From: a virus
Length of the DNA: 64,000 bases
Virus record (IMG/VR): IMGVR_UViG_3300033518_000130
Strand: one strand, 5' to 3'
Shown here piece by piece: positions 36,812-58,330 of this stretch (position 1 is the stretch's first letter; each line of letters opens with the position of its first letter). Position numbers and translations under genes: made by a program. The notes beneath the pieces were generated by a model that saw only the letters and a list, made by a program, of their open reading frames with translations, had not been told where the DNA came from and did not search any database.

Positions 36812-36822
36812 ATATTATTATA

Positions 36823-42800: not shown

Positions 42801-43980
42801 AAGTATTTCAGAAGAAGTAATTTTAAATCCTTTTAATAAAGATGAATATGTTATATTTGATAAAAATGGAAATATTGTTAAAAAGTTTGATAGAGTTAGT
42901 AGTTTAAAAGAGAAAAGAGGAAAAACTATATTTAAAGATGAAAAAGCTGCTCATAGAGGAAATATAGTTGATAACTTGTTAAGAGTTTTTATAGAACAAG
43001 ATAATATGTCTTTAGAAGAATTAAAAGAAATCTATAAAAATACAGACAAACAAACAAGTTTATCTTTTTCAGATATTACTTTAAATAGTTTATTTTTAAA
43101 TTTTAAAGAGATTAAATCTCATTTTAATTTAAAAGGTATAAAATTAATTTCTAATATACCTACTTTATACGGTAATATAAATGGAAAAGATATAGCAGGA
43201 ACAGTAGATTTATTAGGAATAAAACCTAATGGAGAGATATTTATTATAGATTTAAAAACAAGTTCACAAAATAGAACAGATAAAAAGAATAAATTTTATG
43301 AAGATTATTTAAGTGATGATACTATACAACAATCAGGATATGCTGAGTTATTTGGACAAGTAACAGGTAAAAAAATTAAAAGTATTTTTATAGTACCTAT
43401 ACAAATGTTTAAATCAGATGAAACTACTTATGGTTATACTTCATTATCTGCTGGAGAAGATATTGTATATGAACTTAAAAAAGATAAAAATATTTGGAAA
43501 GATAGAAAAGAAACTAGTAATACTCAAACTACATCTACTACTCAATCTAAAGTAAATATTAATATAAATAAATACGGTAATGACGTAATAAATAATAAAC
43601 CTTTATCTACTTCTATTAGTATTGAAGATTATAATGATAATTTTGGAAATTCTAGTAATATAGATTTAGAAAGTATTGAAGATTATATCCCTGAACCTTA
43701 TTTTAATAATCAAGAAGAATATGATACATATTTAGAAGATTTTAACAAAAGACGATTAGAATATATAGAAAATCTTAAAAAAGAACAAATAACAGAACCT
43801 ATTACTCAAGAGGATAAGTATAAAAGTAAAGACTTAGAACCTCTTAACACTTCTCTTTCGGCTTATACTTCTGAGTTAAATATAGACCCTATACTATTTG
43901 AAGAATTTATGCAGAAAAATATGAATACAATAATAGAGCAATTAAAAGATAAAGAATTAATAGAAGAAATTTGTAAATAA
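36823..43980 (+). CDS. giant virion (ejected/cargo-type) protein with C-terminal RecB-like PD-(D/E)XK nuclease domain
   Basis: 2385 aa. N-terminal Gly/Ala-rich hydrophobic segments (ATSAGAFAALGWATGGGSLATL and MLGAIGGAGQTAITAGIG) are followed by long coiled coils. The C-terminal nuclease motifs are AAHRGNIVDNLL, GTVDLLG, IFIIDLKTS and IQQSGYAELF. A degenerate copy (TTVDLILTNKTTGKVKLLNFSST) lies mid-protein. Confidence 0.6.
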   Translation: MGRQRKPIKPTPTDYIINSVKQNNNPLGGIDTADSIKQTTTPPIDILQTYNRNAPTIASSNALDVGEYSGYGGVYDAISLDREQADRTRAEGQSGLAQIRNAIGRVVTNILPEIVKQAANMLDPEEYLQNDREVGNSIAEAMTSLQESANESMPIYRTNPNESFDFGDSGYWLENGANLATSAGAFAALGWATGGGSLATLTRGAKVLKGLNMARKGTGTLANIFSEGTNLIRLSNSTQKVVRGASTLSSAILLNQAEGVGVAVDVYNEQYNKKLEELKSNGLNFNKSDEELEYEAKTHASEAASSAIAYNRLNIALNLTSANMLMKPSMVTSKILTKPGVMNTFKNIGLEAGQEALEEEVNHLSQKLVTDKQGKVRGFFDMAKATLSSEGANEMFSEQGLESAMLGAIGGAGQTAITAGIGNLNIRANDTYNNSYKNETVKLQNENILNAINGKPQISEAEIETKAKAKALQEAGTDKEKVSDFFIKKQQYILQQEQIQKEKNRFEGNPSDANFLLQSGKEQEELQKKIEEAINNGDNEKADSLKDALIEKQAYTAFQMGTTQNLVDLYSGISTLSPNEAKAKGLTDDYKEKAIQAINDIKELEDIYTDSQANYHNSEDVYDSKNFLRDLSKAEKRLTSRLVELNTPINQSLDNKINEKAKVVQERELIEKFKKEKEDYLKDSNATDNKEAKDWLKGRAEERQKRIDEIDEKRIERQEKEIEESIKAKQEIEDIINGKKIESVDKKDTDGKLLKINSFLSPETIALLKKEVNGEQLLKVIQQLQNKDGEGIRDFKDKTEEVLGIITSFEHQTKLYKSYKKAKEKRDKEDKEQKAKDKEARRKERIANSWLNKFNRNKQNDIEDNTENDKESKDKPKTDTSLLGSTVIPVNTSIPVNTNVESILNFFNNKSNNPIIYFDSNTIIFNNEHYTNFRNNNNAEPFKINQNETIFSFFKRLKANKEYSLLENNKVLPLLAEGKTSIFKDSLQQILIDLIKDVSNTYPLLSNEEVVNNLIKELKDYIDIIGKDYNISSNVILTDSKTGVSTTVDLILTNKTTGKVKLLNFSSTYNKEGKLKSENEKLEVNNLKLATVLLKNQGIEVEQATIKPIKLTVKEDSIIPTDNNNINFDNIELVDNSIDVKTDDKSIDVKVNKILTKDLIISLTNPFQLDSEEASSEENEDENSIRLEAISSQVDNLLILQRNPNETIETYVRRVKQSIYNTHQEKIEELENDLKEQLEEAEDENILTKIQIITNLNYPTFLTKEVADLKIKYLSDFIDNIDNYAETDEDKEALIKIIEDEIINIEEEIINILKGLNTLENNPKFIFYEEVRDYLKKITDILEDNGNLDKVDKIELLKNNFDYIKGLVEEKLGISITPEDLVTFIKQYNKYELRPEFLLKEVYNEILVDIFNNIFNLSEDNKILDMNEIFLTQEELDSNKKIIDDEIKEILNDFSPLIEDFSFDKFLEIHKAHIKFLNGNLSKGEVFVDDEIMSMGKLVNSMSSSLAYLSKEYTLEMEEINGIKRKVYKEKNNNLNPEIDTRVIDIKSGDKVEFEVLPFISYVREKFIKEEKYTVKEELIQEGIEYRKITTITNQKTGISEITEEMVDFLSNAPIQIKINGEPYKGLFIRTLASIGVSTVKSIEEVEQEKELLLKLRENILTNNLTETKITIIGEGHLIDNVEGAKKINEAFPEDEVKIGYINKKGEPVEIINGEEIPIVLDNINYLNKIQEAGIEVRGRNILLIPNENGISYTFSFSKSDIISNEIKTSINKVVEIYLNKLAKNPLSKEQEEIWKRVLKSSKDLDNDTSKDLDKLFNYINSFVNIIFDNKGLNLEKELFKDDLQDKKLEKYINKPLIIKTSTGINFGIGGSTYASGFIPINNIKGISNNQINEILEKLDKVLEQSNFNYRLFTAKSNETFIVNENNNIEERKYDEIVKNNQSTPFTSIEVNGKKVYKVQKTLYIDTKEESENQKNNKEFNPIINTIENEIRQSISEEVILNPFNKDEYVIFDKNGNIVKKFDRVSSLKEKRGKTIFKDEKAAHRGNIVDNLLRVFIEQDNMSLEELKEIYKNTDKQTSLSFSDITLNSLFLNFKEIKSHFNLKGIKLISNIPTLYGNINGKDIAGTVDLLGIKPNGEIFIIDLKTSSQNRTDKKNKFYEDYLSDDTIQQSGYAELFGQVTGKKIKSIFIVPIQMFKSDETTYGYTSLSAGEDIVYELKKDKNIWKDRKETSNTQTTSTTQSKVNININKYGNDVINNKPLSTSISIEDYNDNFGNSSNIDLESIEDYIPEPYFNNQEEYDTYLEDFNKRRLEYIENLKKEQITEPITQEDKYKSKDLEPLNTSLSAYTSELNIDPILFEEFMQKNMNTIIEQLKDKELIEEICK
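38722..38736 (-). repeat. CTYTCGGC-motif copy 11
   Basis: Plus strand gccgagaagagattg. Its first 13 nt are the perfect reverse complement of 39462-39474. Confidence 0.8.
39461..39476 (+). repeat. CTYTCGGC-motif copy 12
   Basis: catctcttctcggctc. Confidence 0.85.
43847..43864 (+). repeat. CTYTCGGC-motif copy 13
   Basis: acacttctctttcggctt. Confidence 0.8.
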
Positions 43981-43992
43981 AAATAAAATATA

Positions 43993-46900
43993 ATGAAAGA
44001 AGGTTGCGTAGTTAAAATTAAAAATAAAACTTATAAAACAGATAAAGGTCTTAAAAACTTTTTAATTAATAATATATCCTTATATAAAGATATATTATTA
44101 AATAAAGAAAATGTAGAAAAATTTAATACTTATATTGAAAAATTAAAACAAGAAGAAGAAAATAAAGATATTCAATATAAATTAAATTTCGCTGAAGAAG
44201 AAGAAAAAAAAGAAGAAAGAAAAAATAAAATAGAACAAGAAATAGAAAAAGAGTTAAATAACAATATAGATGAGTTAGATATAGATTTTTCTCCTTTAAC
44301 AGAAAACGATAATTATAATAATGAAATAGAAGAAGATTATAATTATATTAAAGGTCTTTCTACTACTATCCAAAGAGATGTTTTAAATAAAATTGTTAAT
44401 GAAATTTTAGAAAATATGCAAAAAGGGAAGTTAGTAGATATATCACAAGAAGTATCAGATTTTTATACTATATTAGAAAAAGGTATTAAAGTTAATATAG
44501 AAAATAGTTCTATTTCAGAAGAACTTAAAAAATCTATATTAGAACAAATAACTATTTTATCTAATAATAAAGTTATTATTTATAAAAAAGTAAGAAAACA
44601 TTTATTAAAAAATATATCAGTTACTCAAGCTAATAATACAGATAAAAATAAATATCTAGAAGAAAGAAAAAAAGCTTTAGCAGAAATGAACCTTGATACA
44701 GATTTAACAGATACAGATGAAATAGAAGATGATGATTTAGAAGAAGATAACGATACAGGAGAAGATAAAGAAAATAATGATAATTGGGGAGATAATAGTT
44801 TATATAAAACTGATGGAAGACAAAGTTTATCTCAAGTAGTTAAAACTTTATTTGTTAATATTTCTAAAGGTAGAATAATAAATGGACAATATAAAACATG
44901 GACAAATGGAATAACAGAAACTACAGTTCCTTTTGACGAAGCTTATAATAAAGTAGTATCTTTATTAGCTAATAATAACGGAAAAGATTATATTTATCCT
45001 TCTTATGAAGATATGATTAATGAATTAAAAAAACATACTACTAATACTCCTTTTTTACATTTTTTAATAGAAAAATTAGAAAAATCTGACACAGGAGTAA
45101 AGAACGCTTTTGTTACAGATATGTCTAAACAATATTCTAATTATACTTTTATGTCTATTACTAGAAAAGGAGATATATTATTATATAATAAAAGTCAATC
45201 AGATAATAGAAGTAAAGTAGATTTAGTTCTTAATGAATGGTATTCTAATTTAACTAATAGAGAAACTACATCAATAAGTACAGGAGAAGATGGTAAAGCT
45301 AGATTATTTTTTAATGATAAGACTTTAGAACAAATTAATCTTATTATAAATAAGACTAATAAAACGATAGAGGATTTAAAACTTTTTAATAATAATAAAA
45401 GAAAACATGGATTAGATACTTCTATAGATGAAAATAATCAGATAATAAACACTTTATTAGATGAAGAAGGAAAAATAATTCGTAACAAAAATATCGTAGC
45501 TTTACAAAGAAAAGAAAATATAAAAACTTTAAAAGATTACGAACAAAAACTTCGTAAAAATATAATGTCTAATATAGATTTAGTATTAAGAGTACAAGGA
45601 ATTAAACTACCATCTGAATTAATAGACTTTATTATAATTAACGGAGGAATAAATTTTAATTATCAAGTTAATGTTGAAGAAGTATTAAAAGAACAAGACA
45701 GTCTTAATAATTCAAGAAATTCTTATGGATATGAAAATATTGAAACTTTAGCTAATACTTTAATAGGACAATTAGAAACTTTATTAAAAGATAAATCTCA
45801 AAATTTTGAAACTAAAAATCCTATTGATAATAAATTTATTAAAACATTAGCTAAATATACAGCTTATTTTAGAACTGATTTATATTCAACAAGTTTTAGA
45901 AATATATCAAATGATAGTGTATATTCTTATAATAGCCCTAAAAATATAATAGATAATATATTAAAAATAAAATCAGATAAGAACTATTTAAATAATTTAA
46001 AAGATGATGATTATTTAAGAAGTATTCAAGATTTAAATAATCCTTATGAATGGCTACAAGCAGGAGGAGATATAGTGAGATTTAGAGATGGAATAAGTGA
46101 TAATTTAGTATATAGTACAGTTGATGGTTTATCGGAAATAGGTAAAAGAAAACCTGTAGATAAAATGAATGAGAGTGAATATTTATATTATATATATAAT
46201 ACTTTTTTTGCCTCTTCTAATTCTGATTTTGCATATGTTATGTTTCCTACTATGTCAGATAAATCAGTTCCTTTAGATTTAAAAGTTCCTAAAGTAAATT
46301 ATAGTATAAAACCTTTTGATAAAAAAAATTCCTCTAATAATAAACATATTGAACAATTATTTGATGCTTTAGTTTTACCCGAATTAAAAAGAATGAGTAA
46401 TGCTAAAGATAAAAAAACTAATATAGAAGAATTTGAAAAAGGTAAAAATCAAATATTTTTATTCCCTGAATTAAATACAGTTAGTGTATTAAATGAAAAC
46501 GATGAAGAGGTAAAAGTTATTAATGAATCTTTTATAACTAATGATAAAGGAGAAGTAGAGTATATAGCAGAATTTAATCCAGAAGCTTTATCTGAAGGTA
46601 GTTTATTACATAATGCTTTATTAGAAAAATTCCATAAGATAATAGTAGCTAAAATAAAACAACAAGGTAATCAGTTAATAAATTTAGGATTAGCAGAAAA
46701 CATTGATGGAGTATATCAATATACTAGTAAATTAGCTAGTAATAAAAATTTAGGAAATATATATTCAGATATTTCTACTTTTGCTATAACTAATATAGTA
46801 GCTAATGCTCAAATTCAAAAGATTTTTATAGGCGACCCAGCATTATTTTATAAAGAACCATCAGGATTAAAAGATTTAGTTAAAGAATATAAAGAAAAAA

Positions 46901-49900
46901 AAGAAGCTTATGATAAATTTGAAGCATTAAGTGATAAAGCTAAAAAAGGAATACTTAAAGAAACTCAACAAAAAATACAATTAGATTATTATAATGTTAA
47001 AGATAATTTTTATACTGCTAAATATATAGGAGTAGCAGAAGCTACTAGTGATAATCAAGGTAAAAGATTAGCAGGAGATAATGCAAGTGGAAAACCTATT
47101 ATTGAAAACATTAAAGGAGAAAAATTTAAATTATGGATTGTTAAAAGTAGTAAAGTAGCATCTGCTTATATTAAACAATATAAAGAAAAATTAGGAGATA
47201 ACGCTAGTAATTATGAAAGTATTGATTCTACTGATGCTCAAGAATTTACTACTATATACGAATACTTAGATATTTTAGTAAGAATGAATACTATTACTGA
47301 AGATATTAAAAATAAAGCATTAGAAGCTTATGATAATGACGAAGAAATAGATTTTAAAGCATTAGGTATTGTAATACAAGCTCATAAACCTGTATATAAT
47401 AATAATTTTTTAAGAGATGGAGTAAATAGTAGATTATATGTTAAATCTGCATCTTTACCGTTAATAAAACAATTTACTAAAGGATTACCTATAGATAAAG
47501 TAAGAGAATTAATGGAAAAGAATAAAATACAACGATTAGCATTTACTTCAGCAGTTAAAGTAGGAACTCCTACTAACGTACATACTTTAGTTAATAAAGA
47601 AGGTATGATAGAATTACCTTCTACAGATGAAAATGGAATATTGAAAGACAATTCTTTAGTATTAGATGTACCTAGATTAGGTCATAAAACTCAACAAGAT
47701 ATTCCTTATGATGAAAAGAAACGTAATATTAATGATGGTACTCAACAAAGACAATTATTATTTGAAGGAATATTAAATATGAATGGGTTTATAGATCCTG
47801 AAACAGGAAAATTTATAAAAGGAAGAGAATTATATAATAAATATATAAATAAATATGATAAAGCATTTTTATATAAATATAATAAATTTCTTAAAGAATT
47901 TACTACTAATGAAGGAAAATATATAAATTACTCTGAATTAATAAAAGTTTTAAGAAAGGAAGCTATTAAGATGAATTGGACAGATAATGAAGTAGCTGAA
48001 TTAAAATTAGGAGCTGATGGTAGATTTGAAGTACCTCTATATTTAGCTAAAAATGAAGGTAAAATGATTAGCTTAATTAATTCTCTAGTAGATAATAATA
48101 TTAGAAAGTTAAAGCCGAGAGGAAAGAGTTATGTTTTAGTTTCTGAAGTAGGTATCAATATAAGTAAAACTAACAAGAATATAGTTACTATAGAAGGTTT
48201 TGATGGAGAATTAAAACCTATGAGGACTGATGAAAAAACAGGAGAAATATTACCTGCTGAAGTTATTATTCCTTTTAATATGTTTGATAACTATGGTACT
48301 AAACTAGAACTTAAAAACTTTGTAGATAATAATGGTAATTTAGATACTACTAAATTACCACCTGAATTATTAGAATCTTTTGGATTTCGTATCCCTACAC
48401 AAGGACATAGTTCTATGACTTATGTTAAAGTAGTAGGTTTTACTACAGCAGGAGTAAACTATGGAGATATAATGTTTGCACCTAAAGATTTAGTAGCTCA
48501 AATGGGGTCGGATTTCGATGCAGATAAAATGTATAATAATTTCTATAATACTTTGTATGATAATAATACAGGAATATTATATAAAGCTACACAAGAATTA
48601 GTAGATAAAATAAAGAAACAAAATGAAGATTCTAATACTAGTATTAAATCTATTAAAGAAAACTATTCTAAAATAAATCAAAATAAAGAAAAAAGAAAAG
48701 AATTAGTAGAAAAGTTTTTAGAAGGTCAAGATGATTTATTTAAAGAAACAGTTAGAACTATTTTAACATTTAAAACAGAGATAGCAATAGATAATTATTT
48801 AAATGATAATTTTGAAGGATTACCTAATGATATAATAAATTCTATTAAAGATATTAAAAGAGAAGTGGATTCGTTAAAAATAAATATTAATGAATTATAC
48901 AAGGAAAATAATACTAAAGAAAAAATACCTTATATTAAACTTCCTAAAGAAATAGAATTACAAGTACTAGAAAATGATATACTAGATATACATAAGTCAG
49001 TAATGCTACACCCTGAAGTAGATAAAAAGATGAAAAATCCTTTAGATAATAAAGAATTAAATAATATTACTGAATTAGCTAAAGAATTTAACTCTAAAAA
49101 AAGCAAATCCAACTACACTCCTCTTTCGGCTTACCATCAATCTTCAAAGTATTTAAATGCTCGAAGTGGTAAAACGGGAGTAAGTTCGTTTGCATTAGAT
49201 AATGTATTAAATGCTACATTACAAACAGTAGAAAAACCTATGTTTATTTATGAAGAAATTGAAGTACCTAATAATGAGGGAAAAAAAACAAGAAAAATAA
49301 AAACTTATAAAATAGCAGGTAAAGAAACAAACGCTTTAAATAACCCATTAACAATGAATGGAGGAAATAAATCAGATTTAATTTCAGCCTTTTTATCTGT
49401 AGCTGTAGATAACGAAAAACTACAATTAATGGATAAAATTAATGTTAATAAAACTACTTTTGATTTTATTAGAGGTGCTATTCAACAAGGATTAGACGAA
49501 AATTTAATACTAACTATACTAAATAACCCATTTATTAAATATTATATAAGTCAAAAACAATTAAGAAATAATGCAGAAATAAATAAACTTGAAAATTTAA
49601 TTGATAAATTTAATAAAGACACTACTACAAGTTATTCAGGCTCATTAAAAGATGAAAAAATATTAGATAAATTAAAATTTGACATAGAATTAAATATTAA
49701 AGATTATATAGATAAAGAGGGAATACTTGAAAAAGATAAAGACACTTTAACTTCTGAAGATAGAATAATTGGTCAAAGAATAAAAGAAATATTTAAACTT
49801 TATAATGATTTAGAGGGCGATGGTAAACAACTTCGAGTAGTACAAAGTGCTTTAAATTCTGATAGTAGTGGTATAGGAAAAGATATGTTTTATTCGTTAG

Positions 49901-51405
49901 AAAAACAAAGACAAATAGAACTATTAAGAGGTATGAGTACTATTCCTGATGCTCATTTATTAGTTGGGAATTATATCAGTACAAATGAAATATTAGAAGA
50001 TATAGAAAATTATATTAAACATCTAAAAGATAATCCTGAAGAAGAATATAAAAGTACTATATTTAATAAAATTCCTGATATAAAAGAATTAGTAGATACT
50101 AAAGGAGTTGAAAACTTAAAAACTTTTACTGAGGATTTTGTAATAGAAATTAATAGTATTTTAAAAGAATTAGGATATATAAATACTAAATCTTTTGATA
50201 TAAGTGATAAAGGATTATTTATTAAACCTAATACTATTAAAGGTTTTACTTCTGTTTATGCAGTAATGACTAATAATAAAATTTGGAAAGATTTATTCCC
50301 TTATGAAAATTCTTTTTTTAATTCAGCATTAAATCCTATTGTAGATATAATAGAAAAAAATACAGCAGGAGATATATTTTTAGAGCAATCTATAAAAAAT
50401 AAAAGAAAAGTTTTTAATTCTCTAAAAAGTTTCTTATCTTCGAGTTTTACAGTTGATAATAATATGGATATTAATTTATTAAGAGAAAAACTATTAGTAA
50501 AAGAAACATTTAATGAGTTTGGAGAACCTGAAATTAATGAATCTTTGATGAAAGTATTAATAAAGGTAAAAGAATTAACAGCATTTAAAAAGAATGCTTT
50601 TATTCAAAGATTAGATTTAGGAGATTCTAATGTATTTAAAAAAGGAGAAACTATTGATAATGTTAGATATAACGCATCTCAAACAGATTCTATAGATGAA
50701 GAATCAGTAACTGAAGGATTTATTGATTTATTAATTAATAATGAATTAATAGGAATAAATTATTTAGGTAAAGATTTAACAGGTAAAGATTTAGCTAATA
50801 TACTTATTAATCATCAAATGATTACTGGAGGAGTACAAAAAGCTAATCAGTTTATAAAACATATTCCTACATTTTATCTTAAACAATTAGATTATTATAA
50901 TCAATTAGATAGTTTTAGAAAAGAATTTAGTAATTTTGAAATAGGTATAATTATAAGTAATTTTTTACAAAGATTTAAAATACAATATTTTCAACATAAC
51001 CCTAAAGAAGCTTATAACTCTTTTATAGAAAAAGTTATAAATGAAGGAGTTAAAGACCCTGAATCAGATACTATATTTGAAGTAACAGGAGTAGAAGATA
51101 AAGTATTAGTTAATAATACAAATATTCAATTTCCTGATATATTTAGTGTTAGACACCCTAATAGTAAAGGATACGTTTTATATGTATTAAACGAAGATGG
51201 TACTTACCACGCAGTAGATAATTTAGGAGAAAGAGATGTATTAGAATACAATCTACATACTGATAAACAATTTAGTATGATACCTGATAACAGATTTTTT
51301 AATGAATATAATAATAGAACATCAGTAGAAGTAATAAATCCTATAACTTTAGAAACTTTAAATAGTTTAATAGAAAAAGAATTAATAATTAAAATATGTA
51401 AATAA
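43993..51405 (+). CDS. virion-packaged RNA polymerase (crAss-like vRNAP, double-psi beta-barrel type)
   Basis: 2470 aa. FGFRIPTQGHSSMTYVKVVGF...IMFAPKDLVAQMGSDFDADKMYNNF parallels the beta-prime motifs RAPTLH...NADFDGDQM (catalytic DxDxD). Size and position among the giant genes fit crAss-like phages. Confidence 0.7.
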   Translation: MKEGCVVKIKNKTYKTDKGLKNFLINNISLYKDILLNKENVEKFNTYIEKLKQEEENKDIQYKLNFAEEEEKKEERKNKIEQEIEKELNNNIDELDIDFSPLTENDNYNNEIEEDYNYIKGLSTTIQRDVLNKIVNEILENMQKGKLVDISQEVSDFYTILEKGIKVNIENSSISEELKKSILEQITILSNNKVIIYKKVRKHLLKNISVTQANNTDKNKYLEERKKALAEMNLDTDLTDTDEIEDDDLEEDNDTGEDKENNDNWGDNSLYKTDGRQSLSQVVKTLFVNISKGRIINGQYKTWTNGITETTVPFDEAYNKVVSLLANNNGKDYIYPSYEDMINELKKHTTNTPFLHFLIEKLEKSDTGVKNAFVTDMSKQYSNYTFMSITRKGDILLYNKSQSDNRSKVDLVLNEWYSNLTNRETTSISTGEDGKARLFFNDKTLEQINLIINKTNKTIEDLKLFNNNKRKHGLDTSIDENNQIINTLLDEEGKIIRNKNIVALQRKENIKTLKDYEQKLRKNIMSNIDLVLRVQGIKLPSELIDFIIINGGINFNYQVNVEEVLKEQDSLNNSRNSYGYENIETLANTLIGQLETLLKDKSQNFETKNPIDNKFIKTLAKYTAYFRTDLYSTSFRNISNDSVYSYNSPKNIIDNILKIKSDKNYLNNLKDDDYLRSIQDLNNPYEWLQAGGDIVRFRDGISDNLVYSTVDGLSEIGKRKPVDKMNESEYLYYIYNTFFASSNSDFAYVMFPTMSDKSVPLDLKVPKVNYSIKPFDKKNSSNNKHIEQLFDALVLPELKRMSNAKDKKTNIEEFEKGKNQIFLFPELNTVSVLNENDEEVKVINESFITNDKGEVEYIAEFNPEALSEGSLLHNALLEKFHKIIVAKIKQQGNQLINLGLAENIDGVYQYTSKLASNKNLGNIYSDISTFAITNIVANAQIQKIFIGDPALFYKEPSGLKDLVKEYKEKKEAYDKFEALSDKAKKGILKETQQKIQLDYYNVKDNFYTAKYIGVAEATSDNQGKRLAGDNASGKPIIENIKGEKFKLWIVKSSKVASAYIKQYKEKLGDNASNYESIDSTDAQEFTTIYEYLDILVRMNTITEDIKNKALEAYDNDEEIDFKALGIVIQAHKPVYNNNFLRDGVNSRLYVKSASLPLIKQFTKGLPIDKVRELMEKNKIQRLAFTSAVKVGTPTNVHTLVNKEGMIELPSTDENGILKDNSLVLDVPRLGHKTQQDIPYDEKKRNINDGTQQRQLLFEGILNMNGFIDPETGKFIKGRELYNKYINKYDKAFLYKYNKFLKEFTTNEGKYINYSELIKVLRKEAIKMNWTDNEVAELKLGADGRFEVPLYLAKNEGKMISLINSLVDNNIRKLKPRGKSYVLVSEVGINISKTNKNIVTIEGFDGELKPMRTDEKTGEILPAEVIIPFNMFDNYGTKLELKNFVDNNGNLDTTKLPPELLESFGFRIPTQGHSSMTYVKVVGFTTAGVNYGDIMFAPKDLVAQMGSDFDADKMYNNFYNTLYDNNTGILYKATQELVDKIKKQNEDSNTSIKSIKENYSKINQNKEKRKELVEKFLEGQDDLFKETVRTILTFKTEIAIDNYLNDNFEGLPNDIINSIKDIKREVDSLKININELYKENNTKEKIPYIKLPKEIELQVLENDILDIHKSVMLHPEVDKKMKNPLDNKELNNITELAKEFNSKKSKSNYTPLSAYHQSSKYLNARSGKTGVSSFALDNVLNATLQTVEKPMFIYEEIEVPNNEGKKTRKIKTYKIAGKETNALNNPLTMNGGNKSDLISAFLSVAVDNEKLQLMDKINVNKTTFDFIRGAIQQGLDENLILTILNNPFIKYYISQKQLRNNAEINKLENLIDKFNKDTTTSYSGSLKDEKILDKLKFDIELNIKDYIDKEGILEKDKDTLTSEDRIIGQRIKEIFKLYNDLEGDGKQLRVVQSALNSDSSGIGKDMFYSLEKQRQIELLRGMSTIPDAHLLVGNYISTNEILEDIENYIKHLKDNPEEEYKSTIFNKIPDIKELVDTKGVENLKTFTEDFVIEINSILKELGYINTKSFDISDKGLFIKPNTIKGFTSVYAVMTNNKIWKDLFPYENSFFNSALNPIVDIIEKNTAGDIFLEQSIKNKRKVFNSLKSFLSSSFTVDNNMDINLLREKLLVKETFNEFGEPEINESLMKVLIKVKELTAFKKNAFIQRLDLGDSNVFKKGETIDNVRYNASQTDSIDEESVTEGFIDLLINNELIGINYLGKDLTGKDLANILINHQMITGGVQKANQFIKHIPTFYLKQLDYYNQLDSFRKEFSNFEIGIIISNFLQRFKIQYFQHNPKEAYNSFIEKVINEGVKDPESDTIFEVTGVEDKVLVNNTNIQFPDIFSVRHPNSKGYVLYVLNEDGTYHAVDNLGERDVLEYNLHTDKQFSMIPDNRFFNEYNNRTSVEVINPITLETLNSLIEKELIIKICK
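48114..48130 (-). repeat. CTYTCGGC-motif copy 14
   Basis: Plus strand gccgagaggaaagagtt, reverse complement aactctttcctctcggc. Confidence 0.8.
49114..49132 (+). repeat. CTYTCGGC-motif copy 15
   Basis: tacactcctctttcggctt. Confidence 0.8.
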
Positions 51406-54400
51406 TGGATAATTGTACATTTCAAATAAACGGAATAGATAAAATATTTAACTCTGAACAAGAAGTATTAGATTATATAAATAGTAATCCTATAGCAAAA
51501 GAATTAATAAAAAGTATCAATAGAAATATTGATACCTTTGAAAATAAAGTAAATAGTAATGAAACTAATATAACTAAAACTAAAGCTGAAATTAAAGAGT
51601 CTGTTAATCCTACTACATTTACTAGTTATTCAGGAGCAGCTAAAGGAGGAGATACTGTTTGGAATGATAAAGGTAAAAAATATAATATAGGAAAACAAGT
51701 AAATTATGTACCTGATACTTTACAAAAACTAGATGAAAATCAAAGAAAGATAGTAGAAGATGCTTATCAACAAGCAGTAAAAGATTTAGGAAGAAAGCTC
51801 TTACCTTATGATTGGAATAACCCAAATAAGAAAGATGAGAACGATAAAAGCATATATTTTGCTGGAGGTTTAGTTAGAAGAGATTTTTTACAAGCTAAGG
51901 CATCTGATGCTATATTTGCTATTAGTGATATTATTTTACCTAATGAAGAAGGTAAACCAGTAAAAGGCAAAAGGTATTCTAACAAAATAAATAAAGCTAT
52001 TGTAGATGGAGGTACTGGTTATGCTGTTCAAATGGCTATTAATTTAGGTAAACCTGTATATGTATTTCATCAAGGAAGTAATAAAGACAATTCAACAGAA
52101 ATAGGTTGGTATAAATGGGAATCAGAATATAACTTATTAAGAGAAAATACTAATAAAGGAAAATTTGTTAAAGTAGATACCCCTATATTAACTGAGAAAT
52201 TTGCTGGTATAGGAACAAGAGAAATAAATGAAGCAGGGAAACAAGCTATAGAAGATGTATATAATAAAACATTTAAAAGTTTAAATACAAATAACAATCA
52301 AAATGTAAAAGGAGAAGAAATAAATAGCTATGCTGATAATTTAGCATTTGCTTTAACTAATCCTACTGTAACATCACCTAAAGGATATACTTGGAGCAGA
52401 CAATGGACTGCTGGTCAAAATAGTTGGAGAAATTATATGTCTAAAGGTATAGACTTTAATGGTGTTAATTATAAAGATGTTGAAGAAGCATATCAAAAAA
52501 ATAAAAATAATTATCCAATAGGCAAAGCAAGAGATAATTTTATGCTTTCTTTAATAGAAATAAAACTTAAAACATATCCTAATTTAGTAGAAGGTATTGA
52601 TAAAAAAGGTGGGGTAGGTTATATTTTAAATTCTACACATCAACCAACTAAACAAAATTCACATTGGGAATCTGGGGGTAATAATGCTTTTATTAAGTTA
52701 TTAGCTCAAGCATATCAAAATGTAATTAACAATCAAAATGTTAATACAGAATTAAATAATAGTAAAGTAGAAGAAAAAATAAATATATCAAATTCTACTA
52801 ATGGATTACAAAATATAAGTAACCAATCTACAAAAGAACTTGTTAATCCTATCTTAGAACAAGGCAGATATGTTACTTTTAACGGAGAAACTTATATAGT
52901 AACTAAACAAAATTCTAATGGAACGTGGCAAATATATAATTCTACTAAAGAAGGAACAAAGGCTAAAAAATCAGTAAGTGAAGAGAATTTAACATTATTA
53001 AAAACTAAAGCTGAAATAATTAATTATAAAGGTACAGATTACATTGTTACTCCTAAAAAAACTATAATTAGTTTAACTACTAATAAAAAAATGGAATGGG
53101 GAGAAGAAAATGGAGATAGAAGAAGTATTTTAGGGTTAGCCGAGAAGAAGAGTGATTCTGTTTCTGTTGTTTCTACTTCTACCACCTCTAATAATAAAAG
53201 TATTACTATTAAGATTCCTACACCTAAACAATTTAAAACTCCTAAACAGAAAGTTAAAGATAACAGTCCATTAATTAACACAGGAGATAAAAAAACTGAA
53301 GCATTAACTAGATTAGGATTTAAAAATAATAGTAATGAAATCGGATTAAAAGCTCTTATTACTAGAACTATAGGAGATGAACCTGCATTAGTATCTATTA
53401 AAGATTTGTTATTTAAAGCTATAGATAATCAAAAATTAAATGATTTACCTGTATTTATAGATAATAATTTAAGTCAAAGAGGAGAATTAAAAAGTAATAA
53501 TGGAATACCTTTATATATTAAAATTAATCCTAATAAAATAATACCCGATTCTAATAAATTATTTACTACAAAAGATGAAGCAGAGATTAAAAAAGTATTA
53601 TTAGAAGAAATATTACACGCTGTTACTAAAGGAGCATTAGTTAAAACAAATTCTAAATTAGTTAATGATTTAACTAATATTAGAACAGAAGCATTAGAAT
53701 TATTAGAAGGTTCTTATCCTTCATTGAATAGTGTTATAAGTAAAATAAACGAAAAGAAACCCTTAAATAAAAAAGATTATATTATATATAAACTTTCTAA
53801 TAATACAGAGTTTATTCAAGCATTTATTCAAGAACCTAATTTTAGAAAAATACTTGCAGATATAGGAAAAGATACTAAAACACTTACTGTTCCTACTTCT
53901 ATATTAGCTAGATTAAAAAGCTGGTTAAGTGATTTATTTAGTAGTTTATTTCCAAATACTAAAGATGTTAGTAATTTAGCTCGTAGAGCAGTAGTTACTA
54001 CGTTTCAAATACTAGAAGATAGTTCTATACTAGAAGAATCTAGTATTATTAAAACTAAAAACTCGTTAATCAGTGAATTTATATTAAAAGATGATAAAGG
54101 TAATAATTTAGTTATTAATAATGCTACAGAAGTAGCTGAATTTATTAATAATAACGTAAGAAATATTAGAGCTTTTGTTAATGAAGATAATACGATAGAT
54201 TTACAATATATAGATTCAGCTCAAGGAACAGTATCCGATTACAATATTTCTTATAGTGATGAATTTGAAGATTTTGAAAATATTACTAATAATGTTGAAG
54301 ATTTTATAGACGCAGGTAATTTTAATCTTAAATCCTTAACATCTTATCTTAATCAAACTTTAAAAAGATTAAAAGATAATAAAAGAAGAATAAGAATAGA

Positions 54401-57400
54401 ATTAGATGAAACTACAGATACTGTTAAACAAAAAGAACTTAATACAGAAATAGAACGTATTAATGATAAAATTTCTAAATTAAGTGAGATTAGAAATAAT
54501 AGTACTAGTTTAAGTAATGGATTAGAGAAAAAAGAAGTAATAAATTTAGCACTAGAACAACTAGATGAAGTAGAAAGACAACTCAAATCACCTATCCTTT
54601 CGGCTACCGAACTTCTTACATTAAGTGGAACAGTTAATTTTTGGAATCAAGCTAAAGATTTATTATTTACTGAAGAAGATTATAACGATACAGAATTATT
54701 AAAAGATTTTGGAGGTATTCAAGCAGTTGCTACTACTACAAGTAAAAAAGTTCTTACTAAAATGAAAGATTATTTAGAAAGTTCTGTTGTTCTAGGAAAT
54801 GAATCAATAGATACTTTAATGGAAGCTTTTAAAGATGTTAATTGGATAACAAGTCAAGCTACTGATATTAGTACTACAGGTAATGCTTTATTAGAAGGAG
54901 TATGGAAAGTAGTAAAAAAAGCTAATTACGATACTACAAGAGAAGGAGAAGAATATCATAAAAAAATTGATAAATCTTATGAAAAAATAAAAAATAAAGT
55001 AAAAGGTAATAATATTAATGATATATTTTCAGCTTTTAAACAAAAAAATAAAAATGGAAAATTAACTCAAAACTATGTTCATAGATATACTTTTGAATAT
55101 TCTAATGCTCTTAATAAAGTATTATCAGGTACTAGTGGAGGGTCTAATGCTCAAAATTATTTAAGTTTAGCTAAATTTTATTCTGATAATCAATTAGATT
55201 ATTCACTTATAAAATTATTTCCTAAAGAAATAACCCATGAATCTATATTATTACAAGAAAAAGAAGAAAAAAGGATAATAGATGAAATAGGAGTAGCTCA
55301 TTATAACGAATGGTATGAGAAACAATCTAAACAGCTAGAGAATTATAAGAATGATTTAGAGGCAACTATTAGATTTAAAAAAGATAATTATAAAGAAGAA
55401 GTAGTAAAAGTATTTGATAATAAACATAGTAATATGTTAAATTCAGATAATATTAATAAAGAGTATTTAGCTAAACAACTACTTGAAGAAAAAGAAATTA
55501 TATTAAAAAGTATAGAATCTGAAAAATATGCACCTTTAGTTAAATTTATTAAACAATATGAACAAAAAAATAGTCCTTATTATTTACAAGGAACTATAAA
55601 TGCTTTTAAAAATAAGAATAAATTACAAGAAGAATATAAGTCTTTAGATATTACTAAATTAAAAGAAAAGGCAGCTTTACAAGAAAAGATATTAGATATA
55701 GATAAGCAAAAACAAATGTTTATATCTTCTTTTAATATTGATAATAATTTATTTGCTAATAAATATTTTACTTCTTTACCAAAACAAAAATTAAATAATG
55801 GAGATAATATTTATGATAAGGATTTTGAAGTTATTGAAAATGATAAAGACTTAAAAGAGTTTTATGATTTAATGCAAGATACTTTTCAAAATCTTTCTAA
55901 ATATCTTCCTTATAGTGAACGTAAGCAAATAATGTATGGAGGAATACCTATGATAGAAAAAACCATGTTTGAAATGTTTATGGGTAAAGGATATAAATTA
56001 GGTTGGACACCTATTAAAACAGAAATGGATAAACTATTTCAAGTAGTAGGAAAAGAAAATACTAATAGTGTTAAAGATTTTTCTACTAATAAAATAGAAG
56101 AAGAGCTATCTACAGGTTTAAGATTTGATTCTTATCAAGATTTTCAAGATAAAGTATTATTAAAGAAAATAGATTATTATAAAGCTAATCCTGAAAAAGA
56201 AAAAGAGTTTATAGATAATCCTGAAAAAGAAGCAGATTTAATAGAAAAATTAGAAGAAGAAACTAGAGATGAATTAGCTAAAGATAAATCTTTTGATTTA
56301 GTAAAAATAATGAAATTATACAATGTAGCTGTTACAGGTTATAAACACAAAGCTAAAATAGAAGATAGTTTAAAAGTAGCTCAAATAGTATTAGATTCTT
56401 ATGAAGAAGTTAGAAGAGATAGTGAAGGTAAACCATTAAGGGATTCTATCAATTCAACTATTTCTAAAAAAGCTAAAGAGGATTCTTTTGTTAATATGAA
56501 AAAACAATTTGATTATTATATAGATGCAACAATGTATAATAAATCAAGAGAGATTAATAGAGGTAAAATCATATACACTAAAGAAGAATCTATAAAGAAA
56601 AAGAAACTAGAAAAATATATAGAAGAGTATAATGAAGATTTATTAAAATTAGATATTAAAATAAATGAAATAGAAAATAAAATTTCTAAAGAAACTAATA
56701 TGAACTTAAAAGAGTCTTTAGAAAAAGACTTACAAAGTTTATTAATTCAAAAATCTAGAATTAATATAAATATAAATAATTCTGAACAGTTAATTAGTAA
56801 ATTAGGAAATCATAGAGATAAAAATGCTCCAATAGATATAGCTATTAAATGGAATCAATGGAATGGTATGGGTTGGAATGTTATAGGAGGTATTAGTAAT
56901 ATGGCTTTTGGATTAGTAGCTAATATAATAGAAGGTAGTGGTAACGAATTATATAATAATTCTCAATTATTTAAAGCTTACACTAAAGTATTAAGGCATT
57001 CAAGTCTTAAAAATTTAACATTTAATAAATGGGAAACAGATGAAGCATTTAAAATAAGAAAAGGAATGAATAAACTTAATATTCTTAACGATGCTTCTGA
57101 AGAATTAACTAATAGTAGTAGTTGGGATACTAAAAAGAAATTAGATTGGTTACATTGGGCTAATATTAATAAACGTACTGAATATATAAATCAAGCTCCT
57201 TTATTTATAGTTATGATGCAAAATACTAAATATACTACACCAAATGGAAAAATTATAAGTTTAATGGAAGGATTCAATAAAGATTTTAATTGGGATACTA
57301 CTAAGTATGGAGCTGAACCTAGTGATTTAATATTTAAAACTAAAATAAAAATAGACCAACTTATTAAAAATCGTACACATGGTAATTATGATCCTCTTTC

Positions 57401-58121
57401 TCCTATTATGGCTAAGAAAACTATATATGGTAGAGCAGGTCTTCAATTTAGAACGTGGATGATTGATGGTTTTAGACAAAGATGGGGTGATAGAACAGGT
57501 AGAAGAGATAATATATTAGAACTAGATATTAAAGGTAGATATTGGAGTGCTATCGATGCAATTATAGAAGAAGGTTGGAAAGGTGCAGGAGCTATGAGTT
57601 TAGAATTATTAAGAAAATTTATACCTCCTATTGGAGGATTAAGGAATAAATATAATCCTTTAGAAAGTCTTAAAACTAATGGTAAATTAACTCAAACTGA
57701 TGTTAATAATATTCGAAAAACAATGACTGAATTAGCTTTATATATAATGGTTTTAAGTACTTTTGCGATAGCTAGAGGATTCTTTGATGATTTAGATGAT
57801 GATGACCCTAAAAAACTACTTTGGAATATGTTAAATAACCAAAGCACTAGAATAAAAACAGATTTATTATTTTATAGTAATCCTAAAGAGTTTATGAAAC
57901 TGATTAAAGATCCTGTTCCAGCATTAGCTTTAGTAAAAGATGGAATAGATATTACAAAATCTTTAACTATGTTAGTTATGGGAGAAGATGAAATAAAAAC
58001 AGGAGTAAATAAAGGTATGAGTAGAACTTTAAGAAGTTTAGCAAGACCTATTCCTTTAGTTAATAAAGGTTATTCTATACGTTCTAATGGAGTTATGGAT
58101 TTTAGTATATTTGATAAATAA
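51405..58121 (+). CDS. giant virion protein: N-terminal SLOG/YpsA-like Rossmann domain + NADAR-like domain, long coiled coils, C-terminal TM segments
   Basis: 2238 aa. SLOG-like motifs: SYSGAAKGGDTVW...ASDAIFAISD...DGGTGYAVQMAINLGKPVYVF. NADAR-like motifs: SWRNYMSKGIDFNGVNYKDVEEAYQKNK...HWESGGNNAFIKLLAQAY. TM-like segments: WNVIGGISNMAFGLVANII and LALYIMVLSTFAIARGFF. The start overlaps the upstream stop (TAATG). Confidence 0.5.
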   Translation: MDNCTFQINGIDKIFNSEQEVLDYINSNPIAKELIKSINRNIDTFENKVNSNETNITKTKAEIKESVNPTTFTSYSGAAKGGDTVWNDKGKKYNIGKQVNYVPDTLQKLDENQRKIVEDAYQQAVKDLGRKLLPYDWNNPNKKDENDKSIYFAGGLVRRDFLQAKASDAIFAISDIILPNEEGKPVKGKRYSNKINKAIVDGGTGYAVQMAINLGKPVYVFHQGSNKDNSTEIGWYKWESEYNLLRENTNKGKFVKVDTPILTEKFAGIGTREINEAGKQAIEDVYNKTFKSLNTNNNQNVKGEEINSYADNLAFALTNPTVTSPKGYTWSRQWTAGQNSWRNYMSKGIDFNGVNYKDVEEAYQKNKNNYPIGKARDNFMLSLIEIKLKTYPNLVEGIDKKGGVGYILNSTHQPTKQNSHWESGGNNAFIKLLAQAYQNVINNQNVNTELNNSKVEEKINISNSTNGLQNISNQSTKELVNPILEQGRYVTFNGETYIVTKQNSNGTWQIYNSTKEGTKAKKSVSEENLTLLKTKAEIINYKGTDYIVTPKKTIISLTTNKKMEWGEENGDRRSILGLAEKKSDSVSVVSTSTTSNNKSITIKIPTPKQFKTPKQKVKDNSPLINTGDKKTEALTRLGFKNNSNEIGLKALITRTIGDEPALVSIKDLLFKAIDNQKLNDLPVFIDNNLSQRGELKSNNGIPLYIKINPNKIIPDSNKLFTTKDEAEIKKVLLEEILHAVTKGALVKTNSKLVNDLTNIRTEALELLEGSYPSLNSVISKINEKKPLNKKDYIIYKLSNNTEFIQAFIQEPNFRKILADIGKDTKTLTVPTSILARLKSWLSDLFSSLFPNTKDVSNLARRAVVTTFQILEDSSILEESSIIKTKNSLISEFILKDDKGNNLVINNATEVAEFINNNVRNIRAFVNEDNTIDLQYIDSAQGTVSDYNISYSDEFEDFENITNNVEDFIDAGNFNLKSLTSYLNQTLKRLKDNKRRIRIELDETTDTVKQKELNTEIERINDKISKLSEIRNNSTSLSNGLEKKEVINLALEQLDEVERQLKSPILSATELLTLSGTVNFWNQAKDLLFTEEDYNDTELLKDFGGIQAVATTTSKKVLTKMKDYLESSVVLGNESIDTLMEAFKDVNWITSQATDISTTGNALLEGVWKVVKKANYDTTREGEEYHKKIDKSYEKIKNKVKGNNINDIFSAFKQKNKNGKLTQNYVHRYTFEYSNALNKVLSGTSGGSNAQNYLSLAKFYSDNQLDYSLIKLFPKEITHESILLQEKEEKRIIDEIGVAHYNEWYEKQSKQLENYKNDLEATIRFKKDNYKEEVVKVFDNKHSNMLNSDNINKEYLAKQLLEEKEIILKSIESEKYAPLVKFIKQYEQKNSPYYLQGTINAFKNKNKLQEEYKSLDITKLKEKAALQEKILDIDKQKQMFISSFNIDNNLFANKYFTSLPKQKLNNGDNIYDKDFEVIENDKDLKEFYDLMQDTFQNLSKYLPYSERKQIMYGGIPMIEKTMFEMFMGKGYKLGWTPIKTEMDKLFQVVGKENTNSVKDFSTNKIEEELSTGLRFDSYQDFQDKVLLKKIDYYKANPEKEKEFIDNPEKEADLIEKLEEETRDELAKDKSFDLVKIMKLYNVAVTGYKHKAKIEDSLKVAQIVLDSYEEVRRDSEGKPLRDSINSTISKKAKEDSFVNMKKQFDYYIDATMYNKSREINRGKIIYTKEESIKKKKLEKYIEEYNEDLLKLDIKINEIENKISKETNMNLKESLEKDLQSLLIQKSRINININNSEQLISKLGNHRDKNAPIDIAIKWNQWNGMGWNVIGGISNMAFGLVANIIEGSGNELYNNSQLFKAYTKVLRHSSLKNLTFNKWETDEAFKIRKGMNKLNILNDASEELTNSSSWDTKKKLDWLHWANINKRTEYINQAPLFIVMMQNTKYTTPNGKIISLMEGFNKDFNWDTTKYGAEPSDLIFKTKIKIDQLIKNRTHGNYDPLSPIMAKKTIYGRAGLQFRTWMIDGFRQRWGDRTGRRDNILELDIKGRYWSAIDAIIEEGWKGAGAMSLELLRKFIPPIGGLRNKYNPLESLKTNGKLTQTDVNNIRKTMTELALYIMVLSTFAIARGFFDDLDDDDPKKLLWNMLNNQSTRIKTDLLFYSNPKEFMKLIKDPVPALALVKDGIDITKSLTMLVMGEDEIKTGVNKGMSRTLRSLARPIPLVNKGYSIRSNGVMDFSIFDK
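53139..53155 (-). repeat. CTYTCGGC-motif copy 16
   Basis: Plus strand gccgagaagaagagtga. With flanks, 20 of 22 nt are identical to copy 3. Confidence 0.8.
54589..54606 (+). repeat. CTYTCGGC-motif copy 17
   Basis: cacctatcctttcggcta. Confidence 0.8.
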
Positions 58122-58290
58122 TATACTAATAAAATGCAAAAATTTTAAAATTTAGACCTTTTGAGAATCGCTTAAAAAATTTTCATTGAGTAATTATTCA
58201 GAATACTCAAATCTCAAAGGATTTAAATATGAAAATTTTTATTTAATTACACTTTGCTTTGAAATTTTTTATAATGCCTTAAAATCAATA

Positions 58291-58327
58291 AAAAACCTAT
58301 AAACTATTATATTTATAGGTTTTTTTT
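58291..58327. terminator. bidirectional rho-independent terminator between convergent modules
   Basis: 9-bp stem acctataaa / tttataggt, flanked by an A-run on the left and a 7-T run on the right. It lies between the + gene ending at 58121 and the - gene ending at 58331. Confidence 0.7.
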
Positions 58328-58330
58328 ATT

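Follow-up and report, generated by a model that had tools for sequence, protein, structure and literature searches.

A predicted SLOG and NADAR-like module at the N-terminus of a giant cargo protein in a crAss-like phage genome segment

Introduction

Which function does the N-terminus of the third giant cargo protein of a crAss-like phage serve during infection? Among the phages of the human gut, Crassvirales are the most abundant, and they are also common in marine Bacteroidota. Apart from the RNA polymerase (RNAP) core, the roles of the three giant cargo proteins that they encode are, to our knowledge, essentially unknown. Here, we analyzed a stretch of 64,000 nucleotides (nt) from the IMG/VR virus record IMGVR_UViG_3300033518_000130 (the window), which is a low-GC phage genome segment (~24% GC) encoding three such giants. 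The third giant open reading frame (ORF), giant 3 (51405..58121, + strand; 2238 amino acids [aa]), carries a two-domain module at its N-terminus. An earlier note on the window, based on the sequence alone, had predicted that this region joins a SLOG/YpsA-like domain to a NADAR-like domain and is injected to process ADP-ribose or NAD. Our results make it reasonably probable that the N-terminal ~450 residues form an ADP-ribose/nucleotide-processing module on a crAss-like cargo giant, likely injected, that removes ADP-ribose from incoming DNA.

Phage SLOG-NADAR fusions have already been published, and NADAR, Macro, Nudix, and ART domains have been proposed to be packaged in virions (PMC9503650). 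Phage NADARs have also been described as anti-DarT enzymes (PMC11257639). In our literature search, no paper linking crAss-like phages to NADAR, SLOG, or DprA-like domains was found. Relative to the literature searched, the link to giants associated with crAss-like and N4-like virion RNA polymerases (vRNAPs) is new, as is a minimal NADAR-like family overlooked by standard libraries.

Results

The ORF list and translation bear out the 2238-aa protein described in the earlier note, with giant 3 as the final plus-strand gene ahead of a strand switch. The interval that had been assigned to the domain pair, 51612-52740, corresponds to aa 70-445 of this ORF, and every motif quoted for it is present in the translation: SYSGAAKGGDTVW (aa 74-86), ASDAIFAISD (aa 166-175), and DGGTGYAVQMAINLGKPVYVF (aa 201-221) on the SLOG side, and SWRNYMSKGIDFNGVNYKDVEEAYQKNK (aa 340-367) and HWESGGNNAFIKLLAQAY (aa 420-437) on the NADAR side. 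Searching for homologues with aa 1-480 gave 76 proteins, and these fell into two independently occurring modules, A (aa ~63-293) and B (aa ~300-446). The boundaries given by hidden Markov models (HMMs) were aa 63-293 for domain A (51591..52283, +) and aa 300-446 for domain B (52302..52742, +). The sizes of the two families and their confident folds indicate that both are real conserved domains and not chance motifs.

We examined the relationship of domain B to NADAR by profile and structure comparison. An exhaustive profile search collected 534 cluster representatives of the domain B family at E<=1e-3. When a profile of 136 domain B sequences was compared by hhalign with an alignment of seven fused NADARs, YbiA, and P. 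nicotianae NADAR (8BAU) fragments, a match with a probability of 96.1% (E=2.9e-9, 84 columns) was obtained. Among 21 controls, the same profile scored 0.3% against a SLOG alignment and <=0.7% against 20 column-shuffled NADAR alignments. The probability of the NADAR match depended on depth, being 14.9% with nine sequences and then 93% and 96% with deeper alignment (136 sequences). With a canonical-NADAR HMM, matches to the domain B proteins were only marginal (13-17 bits) and spanned the VE.AYQ..K motif. The PHROG search with domain B gave no match, and 10 stand-alone members of the family had no Pfam match at E<=1 and no NCBIfam or PHROG match.

The AF2 model of domain B (predicted local distance difference test [pLDDT] score, 89.4) comprises a hairpin at model residues 50-57 followed by five helices. 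In a Foldseek search of BFVD, 10 of the 28 top matches were annotated as NADAR, from giant viruses and phages, and ranks 2-4 were NADARs (probability, 0.92-0.95; TMq, 0.47-0.53; root mean square deviation, 4.6-5.3). Rank 1 was IIV6 197R, named a tyrosine phosphatase (probability, 0.99; TMq, 0.51), whose architecture is fused to NADAR in a Marseillevirus match. In the Protein Data Bank (PDB), E. coli YbiA (2b3w) gave the highest TM-score (0.48/0.43) and 8bau was also listed, with E-values that were not significant. Because its architecture, profiles, structural neighbors, and conserved residues agree, domain B is, as judged by sequence and model, a divergent minimal NADAR-like family that is descended from NADAR and predicted to be NADAR-like in its working, though failing the curated model.

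The residues expected at a NADAR active site are also found in domain B. A predicted catalytic Glu/Lys pair, E360-x6-K367 (52482..52505, +), aligns with the NADAR sVEqaFQ.mK motif, and E360 and K367 are conserved in 134 and 128 of the 136 family members, respectively. By alignment, they are equivalent to E88/K95 of E. coli C7 NADAR and E36/K43 of T4 AdfN. E88 and K95 are required for guanine de-ADP-ribosylation and are conserved across the superfamily (PMC11543638), and E36 and K43 are the residues chosen for the mutant constructs E36A and K43A (PMC11257639). Further downstream, H412, N418, and W421-E422 (52638..52670, +) align with the T-H and W that are invariant in fused phage-type NADARs; H412 is present in 129 members and W421 in 132, their equivalence to the His and Trp of those NADARs being based on alignment and not on structure. 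W421 corresponds in the alignment to the ADP-ribose-contacting Trp of the NADAR WG motif. In AdfN-like phage NADARs, a His replaces the otherwise conserved catalytic Glu (PMC11543638, PMC11257639). These four residues of catalytic type (E360, K367, H412, and W421) are each conserved in 94-99% of the 136 members.

Domain B is shorter than canonical NADAR. Approximately 40 template columns have no counterpart, namely a helical segment (p..Ak.lGR....W) that lies between the E-x6-K helix and the conserved Met. At the N-terminal end, SWRNY had been paired with the NADAR FSNF motif in the earlier note. This pairing is doubtful, as W341-Y344 falls in an insert present in only ~53 of the 136 members, and it was rejected as unsupported. 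Upstream, the motif that is conserved is LTNPT (aa 317-321), and this motif stands opposite LSNF in the global profile alignment. LTNPT is the likelier counterpart of LSNF on sequence comparison, with the N-terminal alignment being ambiguous.

We next consider domain A, for which at least 58 full-length homologues were found. It matched PHROG 768, "DprA-like DNA recombination-mediator protein" (E=7.5e-9), and the PADLOC model of ShosA, a DprA-like antitoxin, was matched by 20 of 31 domain A homologues (best, 3.4e-7). Sub-threshold Pfam matches among these 31 were to DprA (8/31), Nuc_deoxyrib_tr (6/31), cpYpsA (4/31), and LDcluster4 (SLOG cluster 4; 3/31). DUF5445 (2/31) was the sole other recurrent family, and 16 families were matched once each. 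DprA, Nuc_deoxyrib_tr, cpYpsA, and SLOG cluster 4 all belong to the TIR-DrHyd-SLOG clade (PMC9503650). Both loops typical of the superfamily are present. The Gly-rich loop after strand 1, S76-G-A-A-K-G-G-D83 (SGAAKGGD; 51630..51653, +), corresponds to the nucleotide-contacting loop of SLOG/TDS domains, and its G77, G81, and D83 are invariant in the 31 homologues. The same is true of G202, G203, and T204 in D201-G-G-T-G205 (DGGTG, a SLOG GGxG(T)-type loop; 52005..52019, +), which is followed by KPVYVF at aa 216-221.

The AF2 model of domain A had a pLDDT of 93.8. From the order of secondary structure alone, it shows a Rossmann-like alternation of strands and helices (E12-15, H21-31, E36-39, ..., E108-113, H143-152, E157-161, E204-209, H215-234). 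The best probability and TM-score in a Foldseek search of the PDB belonged to 3imk, a cpYpsA "molybdenum carrier" (TMt, 0.55; E=0.69). No PDB match at E<=0.001 was obtained for the model of either domain, and when both domain profiles were run against PDB sequences by hmmsearch, the output was noise only (designed TIM barrels, NDH-2). Taken as a whole, the sequence evidence identifies domain A as a predicted SLOG-superfamily domain of a family without a curated model. The SLOG part of the earlier assignment therefore stands on PHROG 768, ShosA, the Pfam families, and the loops. For the YpsA-specific label, the evidence is divided: in sequence, the domain is nearer to DprA-like proteins (PHROG 768, ShosA, and DprA twice as often as cpYpsA among the 31 homologues), whereas the weak structural match favors cpYpsA.

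The association of the two domains was then evaluated among relatives. In six homologues (P0035, P0050, P0054, P0057, P0062, and P0064), a NADAR domain above the Pfam threshold begins 3-13 residues past a SLOG domain of the domain A type, which is the slot that domain B occupies in giant 3. In a seventh homologue (P0011), the Pfam-threshold NADAR lies ahead of the SLOG domain. SLOG and domain B are neighbors, in one order or the other, in 13 proteins that are giant or fragmentary, and domain A was also found in 16 of 145 newly returned domain B cluster representatives. The earlier note had proposed to abandon its assignment if profile or structure searches gave no SLOG or NADAR match, or if the E/K/W residues were not shared with homologues. 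Matches to both were obtained and the residues are shared, and the NADAR assignment is supported by hhalign, the BFVD neighbors, YbiA as the best PDB TM-score, and Pfam NADAR adjoining SLOG in homologues.

Several of the relatives are themselves giants that carry a polymerase or other enzymes. In two viral contigs, domain B is located near the C-terminus of giants with the DFDID vRNAP motif (L008, 2824 aa; L009, 3015 aa). In a third (L006), a SLOG domain ends a 507-aa ORF just 5' of a 1929-aa giant. P0091 (3418 aa) has the order DUF7831-SLOG-domain B-PIF1-like helicase and is encoded on a 76-kb contig rich in giant genes and with a MuF_C protein; P0102 has the order SLOG-domain B-AlkB-type dioxygenase-DUF7831. 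Fusion partners in the homologues include AlkB-type dioxygenase, SF1 helicases (UvrD/PIF1), ART-PolyVal, HD, and Zeta toxin. Two human/animal-gut Crassvirales encode canonical NADARs in proteins annotated as hypothetical only: cr272_1 gp23 (L014, 6386 aa), which also has SLOG, and cr131_1 gp48 (L013, 1401 aa), which is located between two giants. The SLOG domain also occurs without a NADAR partner, inserted at aa 977-1161 of the vRNAP of the N4-like (Schitoviridae) Klebsiella phage Pylas (L002, NC_049444.1) and matched by tblastn in the RNA polymerase gene of Alteromonas phage vB_AemP_PT15-A5. A scan of viral contigs with the module found five loci only, so close relatives are rare. On these sequence comparisons, SLOG/NADAR-like modules seem to behave as mobile accessory domains of ejected giants.

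Some further features of these families were observed. The domain B family occurs mostly in proteins of 2000-6500 aa (P0077-P0221; P0091, P0102, P0025), often near DUF7831 (PF25176), an AlkB-type 2OG-Fe(II) oxygenase, or a PIF1/AAA_30 helicase, and several domain B giants of 2000-2900 aa have no Pfam match whatever. The genes of cr272_1 gp23 and cr131_1 gp48 contain 11-28 in-frame stop codons under translation table 11, which fits stop-codon reassignment.

We also evaluated giant 3 as a carrier of the module. Its gene lies directly 3' of a vRNAP gene with the DFDxD motif and closes the virion module, with the genes of the terminase large subunit (TerL), portal, and major head protein (MCP) upstream and the strand switch after 58121. 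Residues 1987-2226 are similar to the C-terminus of the last giant in the Crassvirales Rudgehvirus, cr55_1, and cr1_1 (23-24% identity; E, 5e-6 to 2e-7), and residues 1752-2027 are weakly similar to FpV4 gp33, the gene in the same position (E=2e-6 in a four-sequence database). No direct sequence match of giant 3 to crAss001 or phi14:2 was found. Because its gene follows the DFDxD vRNAP gene and its C-terminus matches the last giants of Crassvirales, giant 3 is the positional equivalent of phi14:2 gp67 and crAss001 gp50, a vRNAP-associated virion cargo protein. According to the literature, phi14:2 gp65, gp66, and gp67 and crAss001 gp47, gp49, and gp50 have been detected in virions by mass spectrometry. 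By analogy with these counterparts and from the position of the gene in the virion module, we infer that giant 3 is packaged and injected into the host.

The remainder of giant 3 gave little further information. The ~1790 aa outside the two domains had no family match in Pfam, PHROG, or NCBIfam, and comparison of this body with FpV4 gp33, the 1929-aa giant of L006, and the L004 proteins gave weak C-terminal matches only. Polyvalent effector proteins embedded in virions (Iyer et al. 2017/2022) are very large, join several unrelated effector domains, and are encoded alongside virion genes. In giant 3, two effector-type domains only are recognizable, and homologous modules occur in typical multi-effector giants of 2000-6500 aa. 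Two C-terminal segments that had been described as transmembrane-like, aa 1826-1844 (56880..56936, +) and aa 2110-2128 (57732..57788, +; within the region matching Crassvirales), were not confirmed as such. Their Kyte-Doolittle means over 19 aa were 1.35 and 1.53, respectively, which is moderate hydrophobicity below the usual cut-off of 1.6 for a transmembrane helix. Just past domain B, at 52860-53090 (aa ~486-562), two tandem beta-rich repeats of ~30-40 aa, RYVTFNGETYIVTKQNSNGTWQIYN and EIINYKGTDYIVTPKKTIISLTTNKKMEW, were observed; they resemble aa 97-174 of P0031 and, weakly, phrog_31253.

The other two giants lie upstream on the same strand, preceded by the genes of TerL (6864-9149, +), portal (9156-11570, +), and MCP (12929-14494, +). 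Giant 2 (43993..51405, +; 2470 aa) is the crAss-like vRNAP, as identified by tblastn and by a DFDAD motif (aa 1507-1511; nt 48511-48525); according to the literature, crAss-like vRNAPs carry DFDxD as their catalytic signature. It had tblastn matches in 122 phage records, including Flavobacterium phage FpV4, Cellulophaga phages, and Bacteroides crAss-like (crAss001-type) phages. The stop codon of giant 2 (TAA) shares bases with the ATG of giant 3 in TAATG at 51403-51407, which suggests translational coupling of the two genes. Giant 1 (36823..43980, +; 2385 aa) resembles, over aa 50-320 at its N-terminus, the crAss "RNAP-associated protein fused to zincin protease" (gp65/gp47-like) by tblastn. 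A motif search of the whole proteins found no HExxH in any of the three giants, and therefore the zincin protease of giant 1 may be missing or degenerate.

Other observations in the window were as follows. Residues 2044-2180 of giant 1 (42952-43362) gave a weak, below-threshold Pfam PDDEXK_1 match (E=0.0022) and share 30% identity with aa 1599-1753 of a giant (2711 aa) on contig L007; this region is a possible candidate for a PD-(D/E)XK nuclease domain on the first cargo giant. A stretch of 556 nt without a long ORF (36267-36822) lies 5' of giant 1, and GC content rises locally to 0.33-0.39 from 36267 to ~37700, compared with ~0.24 elsewhere. This GC-rich stretch may be a promoter or regulatory region or may reflect a strongly conserved N-terminus. 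An Rfam search of the window, including 36267-36822, gave no match, and a tRNA search of the window found none. The strand of the genes and the sign of the GC/AT skew switch right after giant 3 (58122-58330 onward), and all downstream genes are on the minus strand, as in FpV4, Rudgehvirus, and cr131_1.

Discussion

The analysis points to an enzyme module that would reach the host cytoplasm on a virion protein. Giant 3 would be packaged with the vRNAP and ejected like its positional homologues, perhaps partly unfolded and possibly processed. The module would be present in the cytoplasm at the same time as the DNA or earlier, when no phage gene has yet been expressed, because it is carried on a packaged, ejected cargo protein. 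Domain A would bind a ligand containing an adenine nucleotide or ADP-ribose, or cut its N-glycosidic bond, or else bind single-stranded DNA (ssDNA). Domain B, as a shortened AdfN-like NADAR with Glu360, Lys367, His412, and Trp421, is predicted from its sequence to be an ADP-ribosyl N-glycohydrolase. ADP-ribose would be taken off the bases of the incoming genome, against DarT1-type defense, and NAD-derived immune signals might be destroyed as well. We infer the enzymatic activity, the substrate, and any proteolytic release of the module.

Among the possible activities, de-ADP-ribosylation of bases in nucleic acids is the best-supported prediction by analogy, because tested non-YbiA NADARs carry it out and the domains co-fused in homologues are DNA enzymes. 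The tested non-YbiA NADARs, including diverse phage ones, all de-ADP-ribosylate DNA and neutralize DarT1 (PMC11543638, PMC11257639). Phage NADARs reverse guanine ADP-ribosylation, and AdfN reverses DarT1 (PMC11257639).

Several results weigh against this interpretation. Domain B matched neither Pfam NADAR nor Phage_30_3, even at E<=10, and had no NCBIfam match; its Foldseek E-values were weak (0.05-0.2 in BFVD and 2 in the PDB). For domain A, no match exceeded any curated threshold in Pfam or NCBIfam: NCBIfam gave none, Pfam DprA, cpYpsA, and LDcluster4 were sub-threshold and found only in homologues, and the PDB match to 3imk was weak (probability, 0.47). The central helical segment of ~40 residues is missing from domain B, and therefore its substrate, or even its activity, could differ from that of canonical NADAR. 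Finally, the likeness of the body of giant 3 to known virion proteins is confined to the C-terminal ~250-480 aa at 22-25% identity.

The strongest rival explanation keeps the same module and the same delivery with a small-molecule target, and we regard it as possible, though rather unlikely. The SLOG domain would bind NAD-derived messengers or toxic metabolites, such as the cyclic ADP-ribose (cADPR) isomers of Thoeris-type TIR proteins or ADP-ribose-1''-phosphate (ADPr-1''P), and the NADAR-like domain would cleave them, so that signaling is blunted before effectors fire. Viral SLOG-NADAR/Macro combinations have been proposed for exactly that role, and SLOG senses cADPR variants in TIR-SLOG systems (PMC9503650). 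The nearest defense relative of domain A is the antitoxin ShosA, whose toxin is a phosphoribosyltransferase; this is a setting of nucleotide metabolites, and loss of the central NADAR segment could mean a changed, smaller substrate. However, the experimentally tested non-YbiA NADARs all act on DNA (PMC11543638, PMC11257639), and most of the co-fused partners in homologues are DNA enzymes (AlkB-type dioxygenase, PIF1/UvrD-type helicases, and vRNAP). Few packaged copies would also be poor stoichiometry against a diffusible signal, unless catalytic turnover were high.

Removal of ADP-ribose from DNA may also be considered in a more specific form, attractive but more speculative, which we think unlikely. 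The SLOG/NADAR-like module might be a template-cleaning accessory of injected vRNAPs, consisting of a tethered de-ADP-ribosylase and a SLOG reader of ssDNA or ADP-ribose, with domain B being a hitherto unrecognized minimal NADAR family (>500 sequence clusters) specialized for this role in giant ejected proteins. N4-like vRNAPs use single-stranded hairpin promoters. The crAss-like vRNAPs transcribe ssDNA, with phi14:2 gp66 reported in the literature to work on ssDNA and on denatured DNA but not on double-stranded DNA (dsDNA), and DarT enzymes modify ssDNA (PMC11543638). The first transcription step would therefore be uniquely exposed, and a de-ADP-ribosylase attached to the ejected polymerase complex would shield that very first step.

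The same preference of crAss vRNAP for ssDNA over dsDNA in the literature could also fit a DNA-handling device, an explanation that we consider improbable. In such a device, the DprA-like domain would bind the phage DNA, single-stranded or nicked, as it enters, so as to protect it, load a recombinase, or present the template to the ssDNA-dependent vRNAP, and domain B would be a non-catalytic adaptor. The best sequence matches of domain A are indeed DprA-like, and the SLOG domain occurs alone in an N4-like vRNAP and is also fused to helicases. By contrast, the near-invariant E360, K367, H412, and W421 speak for catalysis, and the repeated pairing of the same SLOG with bona fide NADAR and ART-PolyVal points to ADP-ribose chemistry. 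The small-molecule target thus remains the main rival, and DNA-handling and purely structural roles are less likely given the conserved polar residues. That the likeness is no more than superficial, or that both domains have decayed into relics, with an N-terminus that merely aids packaging or ejection of the giant, is very improbable: neither domain has a curated-threshold match, and published work implicates N-terminal regions of ejected giants such as N4 vRNAP in ejection, but both families are large with strongly conserved polar motifs, the models are confident, profile-profile and structural neighbors are concordant, and the modules shift among positions and among giants, as is typical of autonomous functional domains.

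If removal of ADP-ribose from incoming DNA by a packaged module is correct, its timing would set it apart. The known phage countermeasures against ADP-ribosylating or NAD-based immunity, among them AdfN, AdfA, and Tad sponges, are expressed once the phage has entered. Unlike these, a pre-packaged enzyme would work ahead of any phage transcription. For the N-terminus of the third giant, the analysis also offers an enzymatic assignment that is concrete and testable, and this assignment reaches related modules on vRNAP giants, including those of the gut phages cr272_1 and cr131_1 that are annotated as "hypothetical." Since the domain B family is invisible to Pfam, NCBIfam, and PHROGs and resides mostly in very large proteins, current surveys under-count NADAR-type enzymes in phages.

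Comparison with known systems places the two domains as follows. Domain A has two loops in common with ShosA (the DprA-like antitoxin of ShosTA) and with DprA/cpYpsA SLOG domains, namely the Gly-rich one that follows strand 1 and the GGTG one, and these families are its best sequence and structure neighbors. Unlike them, it is interrupted by long inserts at aa ~100-150 and 225-255 and carries a C-terminal conserved motif of its own, FAGIGTR...AI..VY, and all of its matches to them are sub-threshold. Domain B belongs, by profile-profile comparison and fold, to the same predicted superfamily as T4 AdfN (gp30.3) and the phage NADAR "orphan antitoxins" (PMC11257639) and the DarT1-associated DarG1 NADAR (PMC11543638), and has the E-x6-K pair and the ADP-ribose-contacting Trp. 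As in AdfN-like NADARs, a His is present where the catalytic Glu is replaced, the protein is phage-encoded, and its predicted use is against ADP-ribosylating defense. In contrast to AdfN and DarG1, domain B fails Pfam NADAR and Phage_30_3, lacks the ~40 central residues, and has its own motifs, LTNPT, THQPT, and WE[ST]GG. Also unlike AdfN, it is fused to SLOG within a 2238-aa virion protein and is not a free early-gene product, and its activity is a prediction only.

The module resembles the viral SLOG-NADAR/Macro fusions of Iyer, Burroughs, Anantharaman, and Aravind (2022, PMC9503650) in that SLOG is directly fused to a NADAR-type domain, and it shares with them the predicted delivery together with DNA; the partners of its homologues (SF1 helicase, HD, and ART-PolyVal) match those described. 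In that survey, the domains came mostly from myoviruses and jumbo phages, NADAR being reported for ~1% of the other phages, and neither crAss-like phages nor vRNAP was mentioned. The carrier here differs in being a podovirus-type crAss-like giant associated with cargo and vRNAP, and its NADAR is a divergent minimal form. Like phi14:2 gp67 and crAss001 gp50, giant 3 is of giant size, follows immediately after the DFDxD vRNAP gene, and comes at the end of the virion module, ahead of the strand switch. It differs from FpV4 gp33 (1596 aa), of which only aa 944-1389 align (to giant 3 aa 1752-2136), leaving the N-terminal module unmatched. In relatives, the module is placed at the C-terminus of the vRNAP giant (L008 and L009) or in a separate upstream ORF (L006) and not on the third giant, and from these sequence comparisons, it appears to be an accretion on giant 3.

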